Virus record (IMG/VR): IMGVR_UViG_3300028048_001915
Coordinates: 1-64,000 of that record
Direction: 5' to 3' (one strand)
Source of the DNA: a virus
Lineage: Duplodnaviria; Caudoviricetes
DNA: 64,000 bases
This document shows positions 1 through 11,305 of the stretch, in pieces (the first letter of the stretch is position 1; the number at the start of each line of letters is the position of its first letter). The translations under genes were made by a program, and so were the position numbers. The notes beneath the pieces were generated by a model, which had not been told where the DNA came from, did not search any database, and saw nothing but the letters and a program-made list of their open reading frames with translations.

Positions 1-913
1 ATGTATGTTCTCTTAATTTTTTATTTTTTTCAGTAAATGCTTCCGATACAGATATTTGTTGTAATTGACCTTTAAAAAACTTTTTTTTACTTGAAAATAA
101 TGAATCTTCTTTTGTTAATTCTAAATTCATATGACTTCTTTTATTTTTTTTAGGAATATACTCGTAATAGATTTTTCTTAAATTTTGTAATATCAAGTTT
201 GATGTTTCTGGATCATTAAATGTGTGGCAAGGTATTTTGAATCGTTGTGTTTTGTGGGGGTGGAATTTCCAGGAACCTATCATGTCTTGCGGGGCATTTT
301 TCACGAAGTCATCTAATGTTATGCAGTTATGGTATTTTGATGTTGCTTTCATGAAATCCCCCCATGTGAGAGATAATGCGTCTGTTATTCTCATCCCTGT
401 TGATTGTAAGAATTTTATTAAGCTACTGTGTGTTAGTGGTGCATCTGCCATTACAAATTTAAAATCTTCTTTGGATAATAAATTCCATTTGGGGGTTGTT
501 TCGTTTAGTTTGTCAAATGAAGGGATTTTGATGTTATAAAAGTTTAGTATTGCTGTGATTAGTACAAGATAGTTGTTAATGGAGCTTGTTGCTAGTGATT
601 GTTTGCAGTATGAGATGAATTTGTTAATGTAATTGTTTATATATGAGTCTGGACTGTTTATGTCGAATGATATTATTTGTTTTTCTACTATTCTGTTTCC
701 TTCAGTGTCTTCGCCTATGTTTATTGTTTTTTCTATTATTCTGTCTTGTTGTGTTTTGCAGTTGTTTATTATGGTGGTTAGTGTTTCGTTTGTGGCTTGG
801 TGGAGTTTTGTTAGTGCGGATATGTATTGTTTTTTTGTTTTTTCAGATAGATTGGGTTTGCTTCTTAAAAAATTTTGGAATAATTCATCTTCTATGATTT
901 TATAATTTTGCAT
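1..913 (-). CDS. Tyrosine recombinase/integrase, truncated at the left window edge (not in the ORF track)
   Basis: Manual translation from ATG at 913 (upstream AGGTGG SD-like) stays open to position 1: MQNYKIIEDELFQNFLRSKPNLSEKTKKQYISAL...LIKFLQSTGMRITDALSLTWGDF...KFHPHKTQRFK. Contains the box I TGxRxxD/E motif and an N-terminal core-binding-like segment. Confidence 0.85.
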   Translation of the reverse strand, partial: MQNYKIIEDELFQNFLRSKPNLSEKTKKQYISALTKLHQATNETLTTIINNCKTQQDRIIEKTINIGEDTEGNRIVEKQIISFDINSPDSYINNYINKFISYCKQSLATSSINNYLVLITAILNFYNIKIPSFDKLNETTPKWNLLSKEDFKFVMADAPLTHSSLIKFLQSTGMRITDALSLTWGDFMKATSKYHNCITLDDFVKNAPQDMIGSWKFHPHKTQRFKIPCHTFNDPETSNLILQNLRKIYYEYIPKKNKRSHMNLELTKEDSLFSSKKKFFKGQLQQISVSEAFTEKNKKLREHT

Positions 914-1146
914 TTTTTTTTCAACCACCTTTTTTTTGTTATAATAGATTATTTATTGTAGGTGGTTTTTATATTTTTGTTAAGATATTTTCTAGTAGTT
1001 ATCTTATTCATGTTTAAGTTATTTCTAAACGATATCTTATTAATGTATTGTTTTTAAGTTTTGGTTTTTTGGTGTGTTTTTTGTTTATAACTCTAAATTT
1101 CACTAAAAGTGAACAAAATATAACAATGTGATTATGCATTATTTAT

Positions 1147-1229: not shown

Positions 1230-2267
1230 TCACAAAATATTCAACTCCTTACCAGACAAAAAAATATTAACATTAATAGTAAACTCCTGATTCACCACAT
1301 CAGGCACATCATTAGCATTAATCATAACATTACCCATAACATCCATATAAATCTTCTTCAACCGCTTAGGATTAGTCTTAATATAAGTCTCATGAATAAC
1401 ATTCTTACTCCTACCCTGCAAACTATCAACATACTCAGCAGCTAATCCAATATTAGAAGCATGAAACTTACGCAAACTATGACTACGGAAAAACCTATAA
1501 TTACCTTTAAAACCCCAACCCATACGGTCATTAATCTCCTGAAACCTCAACAATAACCTTGATGGAGTAAAATCAAACAACTTATCAGACAACTTCAAAT
1601 CTTCCCTAGTCTTCAAATACTTAATAATATAATCCGTAGCTTCAGGACTACAAAAAGTATAATAATACTTATCAGTCTTAATCCTCTTCAAATACAAAGT
1701 AGGAACAACATTATGCTTATTACTTAAAGTATCAAGAATATAATCCAAAGAACCACCAGTATGATAATCTTGACAACCTATAATAAATTGTTCAACAGTT
1801 AAAGATAATGTTTCAGCTTTAGCAGTACCACTACTGGACATGAATAAAATAACTGCTTTCAAATCAATAGAAGAAATATCTAACGCTTCTCGGATATGAT
1901 GCTTACTTGGAAGATCTAAATAGTTAATTTCATAATCAATATCATATTTAGCTTGCGGAAGATTAGGAATGGTAACTTCAAAATGATTATAAACAGTTTT
2001 AATCTTTTGAATATAAGTCTTCAAAGTATTATGTGACATTTTACTATCAAATAAGAAATTACGATAAGATATTAATCTTTTTTTCAATTTTCTATCCTTC
2101 AATGGTATTTTTTCTTCTTCCTCATGTAATGCTTCATCAATCAAATATTCTAGTGAATGCTTTTGAACTTTAACATAATGTTGAATAGCTGACTGATATC
2201 CTTTACGAGTACTCTCTTTTATATGTCGTTCTTTACAGAATTTATTGAATATTTTTTCATTATACAT
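1230..2267 (-). CDS. Tyrosine recombinase (archaeal integrase-like); candidate cassette invertase
   Basis: 345 aa with ILFMSSSGTAKAETLSL (box I region), KRIKT, HSLRKF (HxxR), LQGR and HETY (catalytic Tyr). Confidence 0.85.
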   Translation of the reverse strand: MYNEKIFNKFCKERHIKESTRKGYQSAIQHYVKVQKHSLEYLIDEALHEEEEKIPLKDRKLKKRLISYRNFLFDSKMSHNTLKTYIQKIKTVYNHFEVTIPNLPQAKYDIDYEINYLDLPSKHHIREALDISSIDLKAVILFMSSSGTAKAETLSLTVEQFIIGCQDYHTGGSLDYILDTLSNKHNVVPTLYLKRIKTDKYYYTFCSPEATDYIIKYLKTREDLKLSDKLFDFTPSRLLLRFQEINDRMGWGFKGNYRFFRSHSLRKFHASNIGLAAEYVDSLQGRSKNVIHETYIKTNPKRLKKIYMDVMGNVMINANDVPDVVNQEFTINVNIFLSGKELNIL

Positions 2268-2502: not shown

Positions 2503-3798
2503 TTACCTATATAAGTTTTCAAGGAACCATGAAGGATTTACAGCCCAAGTAGTACCATCAAGACACCAACAATAAGTAACACCTTGACCATTATCAGACA
2601 ACACTGCTGCAGGGTCACGGTTGATCCATTGACCACCTGTGTTAGTTGGATGTCTGAATTGTAATCTGACATGCCCGTCCCCACCACGGCAACCAACATG
2701 TATACACCTGACATCATAACCTAATGCTTTTGCTATATGCCAGAACCAATGGCATAAATCAGTACAATTAGCACCTAACCATTTATACACTCTATTCGCA
2801 GTTTCCTTGTTGGTGTAACGGTCATCATAGTAATAAGCATAACCTCTACCATTAACTTTAGCTAATGCACCATCGATAGTAGATACTTCACCAAATTTTG
2901 CTTCAAAATCTTCAAGTATTTGTTGTTCATAACTCTTTGGTTGTGGTTTTGGTGCTTCTTTAATATTGATTTTATTTTCAACACTTGATGATGCATATTT
3001 GTTGTTACCTGTGAATTCTGCACGAAGAATATAACTTCCTGGTTGTAAGTTAATATTCAATTTATATAATCCTTCACTGTTTGGTGTTTTCTTATATGTG
3101 ACCCCGTTAACTGTGATGTTTACAGTTCCAGCAACTCGTTCATCACCAGAATATACAGCACATTGGTATGGAGTATCTTCACCATAAGTTTTATTGATAT
3201 CAGTTCCTTCCATTCTTGTAGGTTTTGGAGGTTCTTCATCTATATGTATCTTATTCTTTTTGGTGATTCCAGCACATTTTGTAAGTATTTCATAATCTCC
3301 TTTCACAAGATTAATAGGTAAAACAGCTAATCCATTTTTATCAGTGATTCTTTCATAAGATATACTGTTAACAATAAAAATAATTTTAGCATTAACTATT
3401 TTTTGATGATTAATATCAGATAATACTGCTTGGAATTTACTACCATCTTTTTCCCTCATGTTTAAATCACAAGTTCCAATTATTGGATTAACAGTTACTT
3501 TACAATAAGCATTCACATAATTATAATCATCATCAACAAACTCAATTTTAGGATCATAAGAACCCACAGGTAAATTAATATTCAATCTACTAATACCATT
3601 ACTATCAGTTTTCCTTTGATAAGTAACACCATTAATCTCAATAGTAACATTCTTATCAGATAATGGAGTATTACCTTCAAACAAACCTATTTCTAAAGGG
3701 TCCTTTTCACCAAAAGTTTTAGTTAAATCCTTTGTGATTAAACGAGCATTCTTTTTATTATTACCAAATAAATTTTTTAAAAAATCTAAAAAACTCAT
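2503..3798 (-). CDS. Endolysin, pseudomurein endoisopeptidase (PeiW/PeiP-like C71 peptidase) with N-terminal Ig-like repeats
   Basis: C-terminal GANCTDLC...GYDVRCIHVGCRGGDGHVRLQF...WINRDPAAVL gives the Cys-His-Asp pattern of Pei enzymes. The N-terminus has three Methanobrevibacter adhesin-type Ig-like repeats (TIxxNGVTYxxxTxxxG...LNINL). Confidence 0.85.
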   Translation of the reverse strand: MSFLDFLKNLFGNNKKNARLITKDLTKTFGEKDPLEIGLFEGNTPLSDKNVTIEINGVTYQRKTDSNGISRLNINLPVGSYDPKIEFVDDDYNYVNAYCKVTVNPIIGTCDLNMREKDGSKFQAVLSDINHQKIVNAKIIFIVNSISYERITDKNGLAVLPINLVKGDYEILTKCAGITKKNKIHIDEEPPKPTRMEGTDINKTYGEDTPYQCAVYSGDERVAGTVNITVNGVTYKKTPNSEGLYKLNINLQPGSYILRAEFTGNNKYASSSVENKINIKEAPKPQPKSYEQQILEDFEAKFGEVSTIDGALAKVNGRGYAYYYDDRYTNKETANRVYKWLGANCTDLCHWFWHIAKALGYDVRCIHVGCRGGDGHVRLQFRHPTNTGGQWINRDPAAVLSDNGQGVTYCWCLDGTTWAVNPSWFLENLYR

Positions 3799-4214: not shown

Positions 4215-4290
4215 TTTTCTTTGATACCTCAGTTTAATTTTTTTTCTGTTGAGTTTTGTATGAGATATGAACATGATTTTGGTGATGATT

Positions 4291-4725
4291 GTGAAAGATA
4301 ACAATAACTTATTAGATTACAATCAATGGTGTGCAGATTATGATAAAAATGAAAACATATTTTATCATGGTGCAGGAATGAAGGTACAATGCAGTAATGA
4401 AATATCAAGCATTGGAGAAAATTCATTCAAAACAATACAAATAGGAACAACGCAGTTATGGGCAGAAGTTAGAAAAACTTCTAATAATACACAATTCACT
4501 GGTGTTATTGATGTTTATAATCCGAATAATACTGGTAATTTTATAATGGTATTAACATATACCGATAATACTCAATCATCAACAAATATCTATATTCCCC
4601 CGTCAGAGGTTTTACAAAAAGATATTAGTTGTAATATTGATGCAATAAATGGTAAAACTGTATCCTATGTTTCATTAAGAGTTTCATTAGATAAGGGTTA
4701 TATTGATAATTTAAGATTAAATTAA
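4291..4725 (+). CDS. Variable cassette 1 (CBM4/9-like beta-sandwich, 144 aa)
   Basis: VKDNNNLLDYNQW...SIGENSFKTI...YIDNLRL; starts at site 4291, preceded by GGTGATGATT. Confidence 0.8.
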   Translation: MKDNNNLLDYNQWCADYDKNENIFYHGAGMKVQCSNEISSIGENSFKTIQIGTTQLWAEVRKTSNNTQFTGVIDVYNPNNTGNFIMVLTYTDNTQSSTNIYIPPSEVLQKDISCNIDAINGKTVSYVSLRVSLDKGYIDNLRLN

Positions 4726-4729
4726 ATCT

Positions 4730-5173
4730 GTGAAAGAAAACCAAAACACACTAGGCTATAATGTATGGAGTGCAAGCGAATATAAAAACAACCTAGAAGA
4801 TATATACTATATCCCAAACACGGTAAAAGCCAATCCGAGTACCATATGGTCTACTATAGGTGAACAATCACTACATCTAACAACCACTACAGACGGTTTT
4901 CAAGCAGTAATCATTAAACAAATAACCTCAACAAGTAATAAAACTCTAATTGTAAACTGTGATATACTACATCAAAAAGGAGGTACCTGCCAATTAAGAA
5001 TGGTTGAAACAGGAAATATATATACTGAGGTTAATATTCCAGTAAACAGTGATACACAACACATTAGTTTATCCAAACAGACAACAGTAGATGGTACTGT
5101 TCAAGTAATATTAATTTTAAGGAGTAATACTGATGAGATATATATTGATAATATTAGTTTAACTACTAGTTAA
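4730..5173 (+). CDS. Variable cassette 2 (147 aa)
   Basis: VKENQNTLGYNVWSASEY...TIGEQSLHL...YIDNISL. Confidence 0.8.
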   Translation: MKENQNTLGYNVWSASEYKNNLEDIYYIPNTVKANPSTIWSTIGEQSLHLTTTTDGFQAVIIKQITSTSNKTLIVNCDILHQKGGTCQLRMVETGNIYTEVNIPVNSDTQHISLSKQTTVDGTVQVILILRSNTDEIYIDNISLTTS

Positions 5174-5575
5174 CACCATATCATCAATAAATAAATCATC
5201 AGAACCATAATTCAACAAACGAATACGACAATTACTTAAATCACTAAAAGAACCGGATAAACTAAAACTAGTGAAAGAATCAGTTACTGGAATACCAATA
5301 TCGGCCATTATATCATTATTCTGTAACAACCTTAATACTGCAACCGCCCCTGATTTATTTAATATTTTACAAGATAATGTATATTGACCGGTACGTGGTA
5401 GAGAAATTGTTGTATCACTCCACCAACGACTGCTTGTTCTTTTTGCTCTTATAGAATATTCTCCAATGGATGAATATTTGTTTGTTAATTCTGCTTCGTT
5501 GTAAAATCCGTTTATTCCATTATAATCCCCACAACCCCATTGATTATAACTTAGTATGTTATTGGTATCTTTCAC
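5159..5575 (-). CDS. Variable cassette 3 (138 aa)
   Basis: VKDTNNILSYNQWGCGDY...SIGEYSIRA...FIDDMVL; converges on cassette 2. Confidence 0.8.
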   Translation of the reverse strand: MKDTNNILSYNQWGCGDYNGINGFYNEAELTNKYSSIGEYSIRAKRTSSRWWSDTTISLPRTGQYTLSCKILNKSGAVAVLRLLQNNDIMADIGIPVTDSFTSFSLSGSFSDLSNCRIRLLNYGSDDLFIDDMVLTSS

Positions 5576-5581
5576 AGACTA

Positions 5582-6052
5582 TTAATGTAACCTAAAATTG
5601 GTACTGTAAATAGTACCATTACTAACAGATGGCATAATCCGGAATTGTAACTGTGTTTCACCACCAACAAACTCATTTGAATTAATACTTATTGATGGAG
5701 AAGTATTGCTACCGGCGGGAATGGTCAATGTTTTAACAATAGTATTTGTACCTGAAGAAATATTTCTTGCAATGAAATATAATATTACATTTACAGTAGT
5801 GTAAATATCTACCTGCATAGTATAATTCTTATTTGTATTTGGGTTATTATCCATTAATACTATGTATTGAGGATTATCTACTTTTTGCATTATGGAATAC
5901 TCACCAATTGAAGAATAATTATCAGAATAAGTATATCCATCATCATTAGTAGTTGCAGATAATTTGAAATCCTCATATGTTCCCCGCGGTACTTTACCAA
6001 GGTATTCTGGTGTCCATAATTCATGGGGTAGTATATTGTTGGTATCTTTCAC
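5582..6052 (-). CDS. Variable cassette 4 (156 aa)
   Basis: VKDTNNILPHELWTPEY...SIGEYSIMQ...YSTNFRL. Confidence 0.8.
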   Translation of the reverse strand: MKDTNNILPHELWTPEYLGKVPRGTYEDFKLSATTNDDGYTYSDNYSSIGEYSIMQKVDNPQYIVLMDNNPNTNKNYTMQVDIYTTVNVILYFIARNISSGTNTIVKTLTIPAGSNTSPSISINSNEFVGGETQLQFRIMPSVSNGTIYSTNFRLH

Positions 6053-6055
6053 AAA

Positions 6056-6502
6056 CTATACACTTATCAATCTCCAATCATCTGATAAAACATAACCTGA
6101 AGCATTAGATAGTACACGATATACAACAGTAGTGGTTGATGATGGGATACTCATAGACAAAGAAACATCACCAACAAAATCTGATGGAATATTAATATGT
6201 TGGTCTGTCCATTCCTCATTGTTAAATAAACTAATACATAACTTATGGACTCCATTATATGCATTTTTAGTGTTTACATTTACTGTGAACATAACTGTTT
6301 TCCCAACACCCAATGTTCCTCTTGCATCTATATAAAAATTTCCTGTATCTTGTTTTTTTATTTTCATACAAGATTCGCCAATCTCTGAATATTGGTTTGT
6401 TATATCTGATGAGCAGTTTATTTTGGTATAGTCCTTGAGGTTTTCATTATATTCTCCACATGTCCAAATATTATGTGGGAATAGGTTATTGTTATCTTTC
6501 AC
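6056..6502 (-). CDS. Variable cassette 5 (148 aa)
   Basis: VKDNNNLFPHNIWTCGEY...EIGESCMKI...LSDDWRL. Confidence 0.8.
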   Translation of the reverse strand: MKDNNNLFPHNIWTCGEYNENLKDYTKINCSSDITNQYSEIGESCMKIKKQDTGNFYIDARGTLGVGKTVMFTVNVNTKNAYNGVHKLCISLFNNEEWTDQHINIPSDFVGDVSLSMSIPSSTTTVVYRVLSNASGYVLSDDWRLISV

Positions 6503-6960
6503 TAACTTACACTTAATGATATATCATCAACAAATGTAAGACAACCAATATCACCATAATTAGTTATGTTAATCGCATATGTAGTTGCAGTATTATTCGC
6601 AGGAATATTCAGTGATACAGTAACTGGAATATTAGGAGATATTACATCCAGTAAAGTGGAATCTACAATTTCACCATTTGAATTAGTGGAATATAAGATT
6701 ATTGTTGTATTTTTATTAGAGTTAGATAATACTGTTAATTTTCCAGTTACAATACCTGTTAATGTTCCATGATATTCTACTCTGAAACCTGTTTGAGTTG
6801 ATCCTAATTTGGTTGCCTTTAAACTTGATTCCCCGATTTTTGACCAGGTATTTGTTGATTCTCTTCTTGTTCCAATTCCGCCCAGAAATCCAGTTGTACT
6901 TAGAGTATATTCGGTACATGACCATTGGTCATGTGTTAATAGATTACTAGTATCTTTCAC
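6502..6960 (-). CDS. Variable cassette 6 (152 aa)
   Basis: VKDTSNLLTHDQWSCTEY...KIGESSLKA...FVDDISL. Confidence 0.8.
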   Translation of the reverse strand: MKDTSNLLTHDQWSCTEYTLSTTGFLGGIGTRRESTNTWSKIGESSLKATKLGSTQTGFRVEYHGTLTGIVTGKLTVLSNSNKNTTIILYSTNSNGEIVDSTLLDVISPNIPVTVSLNIPANNTATTYAINITNYGDIGCLTFVDDISLSVS

Positions 6961-7400
6961 TAACTTACAGTAATATTAATATCATCAACATAGCAAACAC
7001 CAATATCCATAGAAACAAAGAGTAATCTAATAGAATTAGAATGAGGAGTAAATGAAATAATGTGTTGATTAAAACTTTTATTAACAGGTATATTAGTAAT
7101 TACCACTTCAGATATGTCATTATTATTTTGTAATCTCATATCTAATGAGTTATTATTCGGATTATAAACCATTACTTTTGCAGTTATTGTTTTTTCTTCT
7201 TCAAGTGTAATATCTAAATAGGAATAATTTAATATGGAATTTTTTGTTTTTATTTTATAACTTTTTTCACCATTGTATGATGCATCAGATGAACTATTAA
7301 TTATAATTTCATTATTTCTTGCTTTTAAATCTGATGATATATTATTATATTCTGATCCACTCCAAATATTATATGATAGTAGATTACTGGTATCTTTCAC
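6960..7400 (-). CDS. Variable cassette 7 (146 aa)
   Basis: VKDTSNLLSYNIWSGSEY...YNGEKSYKI...YVDDINI. Confidence 0.8.
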   Translation of the reverse strand: MKDTSNLLSYNIWSGSEYNNISSDLKARNNEIIINSSSDASYNGEKSYKIKTKNSILNYSYLDITLEEEKTITAKVMVYNPNNNSLDMRLQNNNDISEVVITNIPVNKSFNQHIISFTPHSNSIRLLFVSMDIGVCYVDDINITVS

Positions 7401-7849
7401 TAACTTATACTTAAATATAAATCATCAATATACATAGAAGAATATTTATCACCATGATTAGAGAATTGAATTCCAAATCTAGAATTATCATTACCCGAAT
7501 TTAAAGAAACAGTAAATACAGCACAACTACCAGCAGGTATTGTAACTCTATTTGTAGTAATAATATTATTTCCGGAGATTTCAATTAATATTAGTTCACC
7601 AGAATTATTTGTTTTAATCATAGCTGATGCAGTTACTGTTTTATTAATTATACTATTATCATATGATACTCTTGCATATGTACCAGAATCAGCTTTTTTG
7701 GTTAATTTTATTGATTGTTCACCAATACTTGAATAGTCATTTGTACATATACGATCTGTCATGGGTGCTGTATAAAATATTTCAGGATAGTTTTCATATT
7801 CACCAGCACTCCATTGATTATGAGATAGTAAGTTATTGTTATCTTTCAC
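7400..7849 (-). CDS. Variable cassette 8 (149 aa)
   Basis: VKDNNNLLSHNQWSAGEY...SIGEQSIKL...YIDDLYL. Confidence 0.8.
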   Translation of the reverse strand: MKDNNNLLSHNQWSAGEYENYPEIFYTAPMTDRICTNDYSSIGEQSIKLTKKADSGTYARVSYDNSIINKTVTASAMIKTNNSGELILIEISGNNIITTNRVTIPAGSCAVFTVSLNSGNDNSRFGIQFSNHGDKYSSMYIDDLYLSIS

Positions 7850-8298
7850 TAACTTAAACTTATATTATCAATATAAAATGATTTATTCTCAGTACGTGGG
7901 AACACACGAATACTAATATTACCTCCCGAATATATTGATGTATCACCAGTAACACTAATTTCGACAGGCTTATCATTCATTGGAACATTAACATAAGCAA
8001 TATTATGTGCTGTTGTTGTGTGGAATAAATTAATCATTACATCACATTCTGGAGTATATATTATAAATTTACCTGTGATTGTTTTGTTTGGATTAGTTAT
8101 TTTGAATAAATCAATATTGACCCATGAGGGAATGTTTTTTGTTGTTATTTTTAAACTTGATTCTCCAATATTTGAAAAATCGTTTGATTGGTTTATTATG
8201 ATATTGTTTGGGCTGTTATTGTAAATGTTTGTTGTATCGTGATTATACTCTGTAGCTGACCAAACATTATAATCTAATAGGTTATTGTTATCTTTCAC
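7849..8298 (-). CDS. Variable cassette 9 (149 aa)
   Basis: VKDNNNLLDYNVWSATEY...NIGESSLKI...YIDNISL. Confidence 0.8.
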   Translation of the reverse strand: MKDNNNLLDYNVWSATEYNHDTTNIYNNSPNNIIINQSNDFSNIGESSLKITTKNIPSWVNIDLFKITNPNKTITGKFIIYTPECDVMINLFHTTTAHNIAYVNVPMNDKPVEISVTGDTSIYSGGNISIRVFPRTENKSFYIDNISLS

Positions 8299-8738
8299 TA
8301 ACTCACAGTTGAAATAATATTATCAACATACACCGAACCAATACCATCAATAAACATTCTTAAACCCATATTACCATAATTGACTGGGATAACCCCAGTA
8401 ACACTTACATGTTTACTATTATCTGATGGAGGTACAGTTATTGTAGTAATATTAGAATTATTATCACTTTTTAATCTACATCTAACAGATACAGTCGGAT
8501 TATACATAACTAATGAAATAGTAAATGTTTTACCCTCTGTTAGTCCAGTTATTTTTTGCAGTTCCATAAACTCATTTGCCTGCGCACATGTTATTTTTAA
8601 ACTGTTTTCCCCAATACTTGAAAAATCATTAGAGGGTATTAATTGGATATTCTCTGTTTTATCAAAATCATCAGTATTGTTATTGTATTCTGTACATGAC
8701 CATACATTATAATTGTATAGATTATTTGTATCTTTCAC
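8298..8738 (-). CDS. Variable cassette 10 (146 aa)
   Basis: VKDTNNLYNYNVWSCTEY...SIGENSLKI...YVDNIIS. Confidence 0.8.
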   Translation of the reverse strand: MKDTNNLYNYNVWSCTEYNNNTDDFDKTENIQLIPSNDFSSIGENSLKITCAQANEFMELQKITGLTEGKTFTISLVMYNPTVSVRCRLKSDNNSNITTITVPPSDNSKHVSVTGVIPVNYGNMGLRMFIDGIGSVYVDNIISTVS

Positions 8739-10003
8739 TAAGTTATAATCAACTTTATATTATCAACAAATAACTTTGTATCTGCAACATTATTGAAAAA
8801 ACGCAACTTTAAATCTTCACTAAATGAAGATGGCGTAGTAAAAGATAATTCGATATGTTGAACAAATTTATTACCATACACATAAACACGACCTAATTCC
8901 CCGCCTAATGAAATAGTACATACAAAATATTCTTCAGGACAATATGTATCAAAAGAAATTACATATGTAGTGTTTTTTTGTAAAATATTTTTAGTAATGT
9001 AAAATAAGACATAATTCCAGTTTACAGAATGGGGTTGAATATATTCTATACAATTTTCACCAATAATACTAAAATTATTTGAGTATATTAAATTCCCATT
9101 TGTACCAGATACTGGTGTATCGTATTCTCCACAACTCCAAAGATTAAAATCTAACAAGTTATTTGTATCTTTCACAAACACGGTTAATATTTGGCTTCTT
9201 ATGACAGACCCGTTAATTGTTGCTTCAGCATAAACATAATAAATACCAGGACTCCAAACAACCTGTGAATCAGACCAATTTTCGAAATAATACTTATAAT
9301 TCATCATACTTTGATTACGAGAATCATCATTTAATTTATATATAGATTCTCCAATTACAGTACCATCAATTAATTTAAAAGTAATTTTAGAAGTATTTGA
9401 TGTTTGTGCCACACCATTTTTATAAATCATACCACCTAACACAAAATGAGCGCCTACTCCCAACCAATCCTTACTATTAGTTACTGCTAATCTATTCTTA
9501 TCATCAGAAAAAGTAACTGAAGTTGAATTATTAAAACACGCATCATCAGCATCACCACTAAGATTTCCTCTAGCTCCTTTCAAATCTAAAGTATAATAAT
9601 TATCCCCCGCACCATTCTCCATATAGTTGATTAATCGTCCTATGTTTATACGGTCTTTATTAGTGAAACTTGTAATCTTCGCTTGTGTTTCCACTTCATT
9701 CTGCTTAGTATCCAAAACAGTCTTCACACCACCACTAGCCACAGCATTACTACTGGAATCAGTAGGACTACTATCCACCTTAACATGACCATAATTTGAT
9801 GCTGAACCCACACCATAAGTAGTACCAGAAGATGCATGGCTGGTAGGTGCACGACTAGTATCTACTGGATGCACATGGTCAGCCCTAGCAATCAAATCAC
9901 TAGAACCCGCAGACTGAGTACCATTCATTTTACTATTAGACGCCGTACTATTCAATTTAGATTTTAACCAATTACTTAAATTAGCTGTATATTTTTTAAC
10001 CAT
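8738..10003 (-). CDS. Tail fibre / receptor-binding protein: constant N-terminus (aa 1-276) plus the currently fused cassette 11 (aa 277-421)
   Basis: Tail-fibre motifs ARADHVHP and YGVGSASNYGHVKV. At codon 277 (nt 9175) the frame reads TVF-VKDTNNLLDFNLWSCGEY...IIGENCIE...FVDNIKL, the same domain as cassettes 1-10. Confidence 0.85.
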   Translation of the reverse strand: MVKKYTANLSNWLKSKLNSTASNSKMNGTQSAGSSDLIARADHVHPVDTSRAPTSHASSGTTYGVGSASNYGHVKVDSSPTDSSSNAVASGGVKTVLDTKQNEVETQAKITSFTNKDRINIGRLINYMENGAGDNYYTLDLKGARGNLSGDADDACFNNSTSVTFSDDKNRLAVTNSKDWLGVGAHFVLGGMIYKNGVAQTSNTSKITFKLIDGTVIGESIYKLNDDSRNQSMMNYKYYFENWSDSQVVWSPGIYYVYAEATINGSVIRSQILTVFVKDTNNLLDFNLWSCGEYDTPVSGTNGNLIYSNNFSIIGENCIEYIQPHSVNWNYVLFYITKNILQKNTTYVISFDTYCPEEYFVCTISLGGELGRVYVYGNKFVQHIELSFTTPSSFSEDLKLRFFNNVADTKLFVDNIKLIIT

Positions 10004-10156: not shown

Positions 10157-11305
10157 TTACTCCGCAATTTCAATCTCTAAAATACCAGTAGTATTATCCC
10201 AAGAAACAGAAATATCATCTGCTTCAAGTTTACTATCTAATTCAGTAGTTACAGCAGTAGCTAATTTAGCCCTTGTTACTCCACCATCTTTAATACTGAA
10301 AGTATTACCAGAAACAGTTAATGTTACTTCATCAGCAGTATAAGTATCAATTAAATCAGAAACAGGTAATAATAACCTTTTAGGGTCATCATTATCTTTA
10401 GTATTAACAACGAATAAAATATACTTATCACCAGTAACTAAACCAGCATCAGATTCTTCTTCAGTTGGAGTAGCGCCAACAGTTTTTAACTCAGCAGATT
10501 TTAAAAGTAAATCTTTAGGAATGTTAATTTTACTACCTACTTGCACACCATCTTGTTTAACAATATAAGTAGCTGTGAAACCAGTTTCTGCAGTAGCTTG
10601 TTTTTCAACAGTTACTACTCCACCAAGGTCTGCTAAAGTAGGTTTATCAGATAAATCATCATAACTACCAGTAGTTGCAACAGTTGCAAGGTCAGCTTCA
10701 TCAACTTTAGCATCTAAACTAGTTTGTAAATCAGTAACATCACTAATAGCATGAGTATGTGAGGAATCAGCTTTACCCGCTAAACCATCATAAACTGCTT
10801 TAGCAGATGCATATTGAGTATCAGTACTGGAAGCAGATAAAGTAGTTACTTTATTACTAGTGTCTTCTTTACCAGTAATATCTGAAGCTACAAGATAACC
10901 GGAATCATTATCTAATTCAGATACTGCAGTTGGAATATCTGAGTTATTTGCTTTACCTGCTAATTGGTCGTATACTAATTTTGCAGATGGGTATTGTTCA
11001 TCAGTAGAAGCAGAAGAAATACTAGTTACTTTATTAGATTTATCCTCTTTACCAGTGATGGATTGGTGTTCGGTTAAAAATGGATTAGTACCATCACCAT
11101 CATTAGTTAAATCAGAGGTTTTGGTTGGTAAATCAGTTGCATCTGCTTTACTTTCTAACATAGTGTCTACTTCAGTTTCAGTGTAGTATAAATCACCATG
11201 TTCATGATTAAGTGCTGCTTTTCCAGCTAATTTATTATCTACTTCGTCTTTGTCATATACTAAACTTTTAATAAAATTTTTTATATTTATTGTAAATTTA
11301 CTCAT
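10157..11305 (-). CDS. Tail fibre-like protein with internal repeats
   Basis: Two copies of ITGKEDxSNKVTxxSxxSTDxQYxSAKxVYDxLAGKA; ATVATTGSYDDL and HTHAISDVTDLQTSLDAK fibre motifs; located in the tail module. Confidence 0.7.
   Translation of the reverse strand: MSKFTINIKNFIKSLVYDKDEVDNKLAGKAALNHEHGDLYYTETEVDTMLESKADATDLPTKTSDLTNDGDGTNPFLTEHQSITGKEDKSNKVTSISSASTDEQYPSAKLVYDQLAGKANNSDIPTAVSELDNDSGYLVASDITGKEDTSNKVTTLSASSTDTQYASAKAVYDGLAGKADSSHTHAISDVTDLQTSLDAKVDEADLATVATTGSYDDLSDKPTLADLGGVVTVEKQATAETGFTATYIVKQDGVQVGSKINIPKDLLLKSAELKTVGATPTEEESDAGLVTGDKYILFVVNTKDNDDPKRLLLPVSDLIDTYTADEVTLTVSGNTFSIKDGGVTRAKLATAVTTELDSKLEADDISVSWDNTTGILEIEIAE

Follow-up and report, generated by a model that had tools for sequence, protein, structure and literature searches.

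In the shufflon of plasmid R64, the 31-bp sfx sites share a common spacer (GTGCCAA) and a right arm, with a left arm that is little conserved, and the Rci recombinase acts on inverted sites only (PMC4176322). In the haloarchaeal myoviruses phiCh1 and PhiH1, the tyrosine recombinase Int1 inverts DNA, by which both the C terminus of the tail fiber and the adhesion specificity are switched (PMC6210493), and in Gin/Cin/Hin-type segments, as in Mu and P1, programmed inversion joins the constant part of a fiber to alternative C termini, altering host range (cited in PMC9881135). The literature searched, the coverage of which is incomplete, yielded no report of a multicassette shufflon in an archaeal virus; the only archaeal viral system found in it was the two-way haloviral Int1 switch of phiCh1/PhiH1 (PMC6210493). 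Here, we analyze the first 64 kb (positions 1 to 64,000, hereafter the window) of the IMG/VR virus record IMGVR_UViG_3300028048_001915 (87,267 bp; G000 below), in which a tail-fiber gene lies beside an array of related C-terminal segments (cassettes), each of which opens with the same short DNA motif. We consider it probable that this motif is the crossover site, asymmetric in the manner of sfx, of an 11-way shufflon that swaps the C-terminal receptor-binding domain of the tail fiber in a Methanobrevibacter virus of ~87 kb; the cleavage positions, the responsible recombinase, and the selectivity for inversion alone are what we infer from the arrangement described below.

The 145-aa terminal domain of the fiber begins V-K-D at nucleotide 9175, and all 11 cassettes open with GTGAAAGA, which encodes V-K-D/E. 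Residue identity among the cassettes ranges from 24 to 67% (24 to 36% relative to the first cassette of the alignment), their 5' 40 to 60 nucleotides (nt) are mutually 70 to 88% identical, and their C termini are conserved. The fiber gene, the array, and the individual sites are as follows.

8738-10003, minus strand: expressed tail-fiber gene, 276-aa constant part plus 145-aa cassette, relatives whose constant part is 92 to 94% identical bearing other cassettes
4267-8738, two on the plus strand and eight on the minus strand: array of 10 further cassettes (138 to 156 aa), which meet tail to tail once, at 5159-5173
9166-9180, minus strand: expressed site L_E, fiber codons ..V F / V K D, TGTTT GTGAAAGA TA
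4286-4300, plus strand: outermost plus site L_0, preceded by a short ATG leader at 4267-4290, MNMILVMI
4725-4739, plus strand: second plus site, the VKENQN variant, GTGAAAGAAA
5566-5580, minus strand: silent site with a noncoding left flank (TAA TAGTCT)
6043-6057, minus strand: silent site with its left flank after a stop codon (TAG TTT)
6493-6507, minus strand: silent site at which the TAG that ends the upstream cassette runs into GTG, the two overlapping
6951-6965, minus strand: silent site with TAG/GTG overlap
7391-7405, minus strand: silent site, the cassette of which (6960-7400) is fused to a G000-like fiber in the public protein P0001
7840-7854, minus strand: site at 7849, conserved block from -5 to +10, AGTTA GTGAAAGA TA, characterized by position counts over 26 sites and codon tests
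7829-7856, minus strand: 28-bp palindrome, composed of the last bases of cassette 7849-8298 (..AGT TAG), the core, and the first seven codons of cassette 7400-7849
8289-8303, minus strand: silent site with TAG/GTG overlap
8729-8743, minus strand: silent site immediately after the stop codon of the expressed fiber gene

Cassette exchange and array order

We searched protein collections with a profile of the cassette and with the constant part of the fiber and mapped the junctions at the protein level. The fibers of G000, P0056, P0057, and P0001 share 276-aa N termini that are 92 to 95% identical and end in four unrelated cassettes, that of P0001 being 96% identical to the silent G000 cassette at 6960-7400. 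The cassette that lies silent at 7400-7849 in G000 (the 7849-type cassette) recurs elsewhere with 97 to 99% mutual identity in three contexts, namely, as a stand-alone MKD open reading frame (ORF; P0046), fused to the leader MILVMI (P0005), and on another fiber N terminus (P0047 and P0051). The expressed cassette of G000 is itself a stand-alone ORF in P0008/P0053, and its leader-linked (L_0) cassette is fused to a fiber, with 99.3% identity, in P0059. All 18 of the related fiber proteins examined join at (V/L)F/VK(D/E). Of 13 orthologs of the 7849-type cassette, 12 agree with that of G000 over their first 21 residues regardless of the left context, which places the crossover between -1 and about +10 (counted from the G of GTG as +1); the 8-bp GTGAAAGA, invariant over the 26 sites compared below, lies within this bracket. 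A preliminary description made from the letters of the window had proposed that the motif marks a recombination joint, and the public proteins bear this out, for it is exactly at this point that their cassettes are swapped. Judged by these sequences, which compare viruses rather than isomers within one sample, the segments change place, joined at the site. The same cassette is also found on fiber N termini that are only 49 to 61% identical, which suggests exchange between viruses.

Other attempts to find alternative arrangements were less informative. A metagenome scan for the junction of L_E with the core gave four matches, all of them unrelated chance matches, and a search for related loci based on P0047 found none. 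G002 was rejected as an informative isomer, as it is 100% identical to G001, a related virus with an array of its own, and its contig simply starts 215 nt inside the expressed cassette. In the Methanobrevibacter metagenome-assembled genome (MAG) RUI021, one contig starts (L031 1-78) with a fold-back copy of the L_E presite sequence (44 nt), followed by 34 nt of L_E, the core, and a VKENQN cassette. We take this start for an assembly artifact; it is the pattern expected if a second inversion isomer had confused the assembler, and it hints only weakly at such an isomer. In P0055, from a 1,455-bp ENA contig, a lipoprotein-like, Bacteroidetes-like N terminus is joined to a 7849-type cassette at ..ANKL/VKD, most likely as a chimeric assembly.

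The order of the sites in the array is informative about how it rearranges. L_E lies on the minus strand and the outermost site, L_0, on the plus strand. Inversion between a plus and a minus site turns an interior of a plus sites followed by b minus sites into one of b plus sites followed by a minus sites, so that the order "all plus, one tail-to-tail junction, all minus" survives any number of inversions. This order was found in five of five arrays (G000, G001, RUI021, L019, and L021), in each of which every plus site lies to the left of every minus site with a single tail-to-tail junction, the numbers of plus and minus sites being 2 and 9 in G000, 3 and 7 in G001, 4 and 2 in L019, and 2 and 1 in L021. 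Nine directly repeated minus sites persist in G000. A single inversion of the order in G000 would yield P0005, which combines the L_0 leader with the 7849-type cassette, and deletion could not; any minus cassette can reach the fiber in two inversions. From this order we infer inversion as the probable mode of rearrangement.

The arrays at L019 (12530-15173) and L021 (13187-14730), from related viruses, consist of a different domain family and are accompanied by the same Rec1/Rec2 recombinase pair as G000. Their site sequences are unrelated to that of G000 (TWTTCAACAAAKA, encoding Y/F-S-T-N, and YSA..), and no common site motif could be derived across the G000-type, L019, and L021 arrays. As these loci differ in sites and cassettes and yet keep the same layout, the shufflon layout appears to be conserved while sites and cassettes are replaced.

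In every case, an ATG and 2 to 8 codons precede the outermost plus site, namely, MNMILVMI (4267-4290), MGY (L018 8448-8456, in G001), and MIV (L019, ~12530). Given such a leader, the resident cassette could be made as a free-standing protein of ~150 aa, and L_0 would then be a second expression site; P0005 and P0032 have been called as leader-cassette ORFs. At the tail-to-tail junction (5159-5173), 15 bp form the near-palindrome TTAACTA-C-TAGTTAA, which is read as L-T-(T/S)-S-stop from either strand, and the 15-bp overlap at the corresponding junction of G001 is identical. The cassette homolog P0014 bears a precomputed match to Pfam PF02018, which we take to be the CBM_4_9 carbohydrate-binding module; if so, the match would agree with the cassettes being carbohydrate-binding jelly rolls.

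Anatomy of the exchange site

We compared 26 homologous sites, 11 of them in G000, 9 in G001 (locus L018), and 6 in MAG RUI021 (L030/L031). The conserved block, AGTYW-GTGAAAGA-TA, spans -5 to +10 and is asymmetric: positions +1 to +8 and +10 are invariant in all 26, +9 is T in 23, and upstream of the GTG, A-5 and G-4 occur in 19 each, T-3 in 25, Y-2 in 24, and W-1 in 26, with no conservation among these sites upstream of -6. The preliminary description had held that DNA conservation extends upstream of the GTG, beyond what the VKD peptide requires, and both parts of this statement stand. Upstream conservation covers -5 to -1 over the 26 sites with nothing past -6, GTG is present in 26 of 26 versus 9.2% of the Val codons in the long ORFs of the virus, and the left flank is kept in coding, noncoding, and fiber contexts. 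Thus, the G-4/T-3 pair lies in a Ser codon followed by an overlapping stop (TAG or TGA), in a noncoding spacer after a stop codon, or, in the fiber, at the third base of a rare GTG or TTG codon followed by TTT (Phe); this ..GTTT/GTG left flank of L_E is also found in G001 and RUI021. Downstream, the wobble positions +12, +15, +18, and +19 are variable, though constrained, in that AAC is used in 14 of 16 cases at codon 4 and in 15 of 26 at codon 6 (versus 26% genomic use) and CTA makes up about half of the Leu codons at positions 7 and 8 (versus 6% in the genome). The footprint of the site is therefore about -5 to +24, strong from -4 to +10 only.

In the window, GTGAAAGA occurs 19 times versus 3.5 expected. 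The 11 true sites have the G of their GTG at 4291 and 4730 on the plus strand and at 5575, 6052, 6502, 6960, 7400, 7849, 8298, 8738, and 9175 on the minus strand. The occurrence at 5271 (plus strand) was considered as a twelfth site and rejected as a chance match inside a cassette, and seven further matches lack the flanking consensus. One G001 cassette (L018, ~10200-10230) has a 1-nt insertion in the core (GTGAAAG-T-ATAC) that puts an otherwise open cassette out of frame; either the site is dead or the extra base is an error of sequencing.

The preliminary description had portrayed the site as two 7-bp inverted arms, binding the recombinase, that enclose a 14-bp asymmetric core. Its letters are correct: the plus strand reads TAAGTTA at 7829-7835, TTGTTATCTTTCAC at 7836-7849, and TAACTTA at 7850-7856, so that 14 bp containing the reverse complement of GTGAAAGA lie between the halves of a perfect 7-bp inverted repeat, and the letters that it gave for the site at 6502 and for the expressed site (9175) likewise agree. 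Nevertheless, perfect inverted repeats of 7 bp that are set 14 bp apart number 21 in the window (shuffling the mononucleotides gave a mean of 7.8 and up to 16), and a 7/7 palindrome is present at only 1 of the 26 homologous sites from the three viruses, with a mean match of 3.5/7. When all left flanks were combined with all right flanks, the mean was the same as that for cognate pairs and 3.1% were perfect, which predicts ~0.8 perfect sites among 26. The palindrome at 7829-7856 is a chance pairing of the left flank with the current cassette and not a feature of the site; as inversion keeps left flanks in place and moves right flanks, it would be restricted to the current isomer. The right "arm" (+15 to +21) varies at wobble positions (T/C/A at +15, C/T at +18, and C/T/A at +19), and the left "arm" is conserved over -5 to -1 only. 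A scan of all registers with 6- to 8-bp spacers gave a best dyad of 5.35/11 versus a median of 3.3, without convincing symmetry, and paired inverted arms of ~11 to 13 bp in the style of loxP, FRT, or dif are absent at that best score and at 3.5/7 in the register of the reported palindrome. For simple tyrosine recombinases of the Cre/Xer type, a crossover region of 6 to 8 bp, rather than 14 bp, is expected.

The asymmetry of the motif, by contrast, withstood analysis, the conserved block being lopsided and without an outstanding dyad. The further suggestion that this asymmetry is what keeps the directly repeated cassettes from being deleted fares less evenly, as R64 provides a precedent for it, but there it is reportedly the arms, and not a 14-bp core, that matter. 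An asymmetric core decides whether a given pair of sites inverts or deletes the DNA between them; alone, it does not block deletion between direct repeats. The earlier interpretation is thus partly supported, right in seeing an asymmetric exchange site of the recombinase type and wrong about its anatomy.

Recombinases, proposed mechanism, and alternatives

Two recombinase genes lie at the left end of the window.

2-928, minus strand: Rec1, a canonical tyrosine recombinase, continuing across the joined record ends (86737-87264)
1230-2267, minus strand: Rec2, tyrosine-recombinase fold with a noncanonical box I (SSGTAKAE, without Arg)

The Rec1 gene crosses the joint of the record intact (~455 aa) and has the canonical R, HxxR, GH, and Y motifs. 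Both proteins match the PHROG 1 integrase (Rec2 with an E value of 3.7e-11); Rec1 is weakly XerA-like, with no named family above the cutoff, and Rec2 has no NCBIfam match. A structural model of Rec2 (mean predicted local distance difference test score [pLDDT] of 67, with a poorly modeled catalytic C terminus) matches XerA and Cre with a Foldseek probability of 1.0, this fold search alone giving a match where a sequence search against solved structures gave none. The SSGTAKAE of Rec2 in place of the box I Arg and LQGR in place of LGH are invariant in nine homologs that are 57 to 83% identical to it. The resolvase domain of serine recombinases (PF00239) is absent across the whole 87-kb genome.

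On the basis of these observations, we propose that Rec1 and/or Rec2, the only recombinases of the genome, would pair a plus site with a minus site, that strands would be exchanged inside the invariant 8 to 10 bp, and that everything between the two sites would then be inverted. Left flanks would stay put and cassettes would move, and a silent cassette could be brought to the fiber gene in two inversions. Among the related viruses, the left flanks to which cassettes are joined at this exact point are of three kinds, namely, the constant part of the fiber (L_E), a short ATG leader (L_0), and the end of another cassette. By analogy with R64, the asymmetry of the arms may suppress recombination between the nine directly repeated sites. 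A more elaborate scheme, to which we give rather poor chances, would have Rec1 and Rec2 act jointly on the lopsided site as a XerC/XerD-like heterocomplex in which Rec1 binds and cuts the conserved right half and Rec2, which lacks the first catalytic Arg in nine homologs, holds the degenerate left half; an inversion-only, 11-way host range switch would then arise by a route other than an Rci-type C-terminal domain.

Several observations weigh against this reading of the locus as a site-specific shufflon driven by Rec1 and Rec2. In P0003, six of eight differences fall within residues 7 to 21 (P = 1e-4), and the VKENQN start is found on at least four different cassette bodies; these mosaic 5' ends imply that some exchange occurs further into the conserved 5' box, downstream of the core. 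Deletion would account for P0001 equally well. No Rec1 lies near the arrays of G001 and RUI021, although those of G000, L019, and L021 each have one; Rec2 is present in all 10 loci, 5 of them without a detectable cassette array, and is frameshifted in G001. No sequence kinship of Rec1 or Rec2 to Rci was detected, and a review of archaeal tyrosine recombinases likewise found no direct relationship to Rci (PMC8371274). The five Rec2-bearing viruses without a detectable array also mean that Rec2 fails as a marker for such arrays.

Three alternatives concern the nature of the site itself. That recombinase monomers are bound by symmetric 7-bp arms, TAAGTTA and TAACTTA, on either side of an asymmetric core of 14 bp is very improbable in our estimation: besides the perfect repeat at 7829-7856, it can appeal to matches of 5 to 6/7 wherever the left flank is AAGTTA, to the complementarity of the consensus G-4 T-3 T-2 with A+16 A+17 C+18, and to the overuse of AAC at codon 6 (15 of 26 versus 26%), but it has to contend with a repeat that is perfect at one site in 26, with cognate flanks that pair no better than random ones, with the 21 such palindromes of the window, with a right arm that varies at wobble positions, and with flanks that are re-paired by inversion. 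Moreover, the expressed and L_0 sites, which must be active, score only 1 to 4/7, and a 14-bp overlap falls outside the 6 to 8 bp usual for tyrosine recombinases. A more conventional variant, possible though unlikely, would place an 8-bp overlap, GTGAAAGA, between short inverted inner arms, GTTA and TAAC, with both half-sites specifically bound, one tightly and one weakly. The consensus from -4 to -1 (GTTA) indeed mirrors that from +9 to +12 (TAAC), C+12 is favored beyond codon usage (AAC in 14 of 16 and ACC in 4 of 10), and an 8-bp spacer suits enzymes of the Cre/Xer type, to which the Rec2 model points; the mean match in this register is, however, 2.9/7, the scan of all registers has no outstanding dyad, the "T-type" sites read TACN, and the L_0 sites lack GTTA. 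It is scarcely credible that the motif has no recombination function and merely combines translation signals, in the form of a GTG start that overlaps TAG or TGA for the coupled translation of stand-alone cassette proteins, with the folding needs of domain ends. The TAG/GTG overlap at 10 of 26 junctions, the TGA overlap at three, the MKD... ORFs listed by gene callers, and the conserved cassette C termini are in keeping with it, but the same GTG sits inside the fiber ORF, ATG is never used in its place, the left flank is conserved also where no stop overlaps, and cassettes are found in alternative fusion contexts.

The remaining alternative dispenses with a dedicated site and has cassettes exchanged across the conserved 5' box of ~55 bp (VKDxNNLLxYNxWSxxEY), whether through homologous recombination or by gene conversion, as in pilS or vls systems or the adhesin swapping of T-even phages. 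It would account for the direct orientation of 8 of the 10 nonexpressed cassettes, as in gene conversion arrays, for the 70 to 88% identity of the 5' 40 to 60 nt, for the mosaic 5' ends (P0003 and VKENQN on several bodies), and for the sharing of a cassette by N termini of 49 to 61% identity. We nonetheless regard it as improbable, since uninterrupted identity between the expressed site and the two plus sites amounts to only 8 to 10 bp, and since the invariant block ends sharply, contains a rare codon, and reaches into a left flank that is nonhomologous between contexts. The 5' end, furthermore, travels with the body in 12 of 13 orthologs, the plus-then-minus order and the L_0 leader would be left unexplained, and two recombinases adjoin the array.

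The window, which has a G+C content of ~30%, encodes a Pei-type pseudomurein endoisopeptidase at 2503-3798, and this enzyme, together with the related array in Methanobrevibacter MAG RUI021, points to a Methanobrevibacter-type methanogen as the host. The two ends of the record have 126 identical bases in common (window positions 5 to 130; record positions 87142 to 87267), from which it follows that the genome is either circular or terminally redundant, despite its being listed as linear by the source. A phage collection yielded no matches, at either the DNA or the protein level. In the human gut and the rumen, Methanobrevibacter is the principal source of methane, and its viruses are barely characterized. 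An 11-way programmed switch of the fiber tip, if true, would enable a single virus to deal with many types of host surface and would also account for assembly breaks at the array locus. A compact archaeal inversion system with a site of ~15 to 30 bp might become a useful tool, provided that it turns out to be inversion only.

Comparison with known systems

Tail-fiber inversion of the phiCh1/PhiH1 type, a subject reportedly treated by Rossler et al. (2004) and by Klein et al. (2012), resembles the G000 locus in involving an archaeal tailed virus, a tyrosine recombinase, and a switch of the fiber C terminus. There, two inverted fiber genes, each with short repeats in clusters, flank the recombinase gene, and switching is in essence two-way (PMC6210493), whereas in G000 the recombinases (2-2267) lie outside an 11-cassette array (4267-10003) with a single site per cassette. 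Gin/Cin/Hin-type systems differ in relying on a serine invertase with an enhancer and in being two-way (four-way in Min), G000 having no serine recombinase. The G000 site does not resemble the symmetric sites of the loxP type, although, as with loxP, FRT, and dif, candidate cognate tyrosine recombinases (Rec1 and Rec2) are encoded nearby.

In T-even phages, adhesins are reportedly swapped through short motifs, as described by Tetart et al. (1998; cited in PMC10791045). In both that process and G000, short conserved motifs at domain borders let fiber tips pass between viruses, which fits the sharing of a cassette by N termini of 49 to 61% identity. T-even swapping differs in that genomes exchange homologous DNA over evolutionary time, with no in-genome array and attendant recombinases. 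Gene conversion of the pilS/vls kind depends on long homologous flanks on both sides, whereas the left flanks of G000 are unrelated between contexts.

The R64/IncI plasmid shufflon shares the most features with this locus. Both systems offer many alternative C-terminal segments to one adhesin gene (pilV in R64), with a short in-frame site at each junction; both have an asymmetric site with an invariant spacer, one conserved arm, and one poorly conserved arm; and both combine a tyrosine-type recombinase with sites in both orientations and tolerate direct repeats. Going by its title, the study of Gyohda et al. (2006; cited in PMC11850598) is said to show that the asymmetry of the R64 site blocks recombination between direct repeats. 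The differences are that R64 is a plasmid and varies a pilus, whereas G000 is an archaeal virus and would vary a tail fiber, and that R64 has four segments with seven sites, whereas G000 has 11 cassettes, each with a single site and most of them arranged head to tail. Unlike R64, G000 has two divergent recombinases without detectable kinship to Rci and a second expression site, L_0, with its own ATG, and the site sequences of the two are unrelated, save for a coincidental GTG start. Taken together, these likenesses and differences indicate that the G000 system probably works as a shufflon does but stands outside the Rci/sfx lineage.

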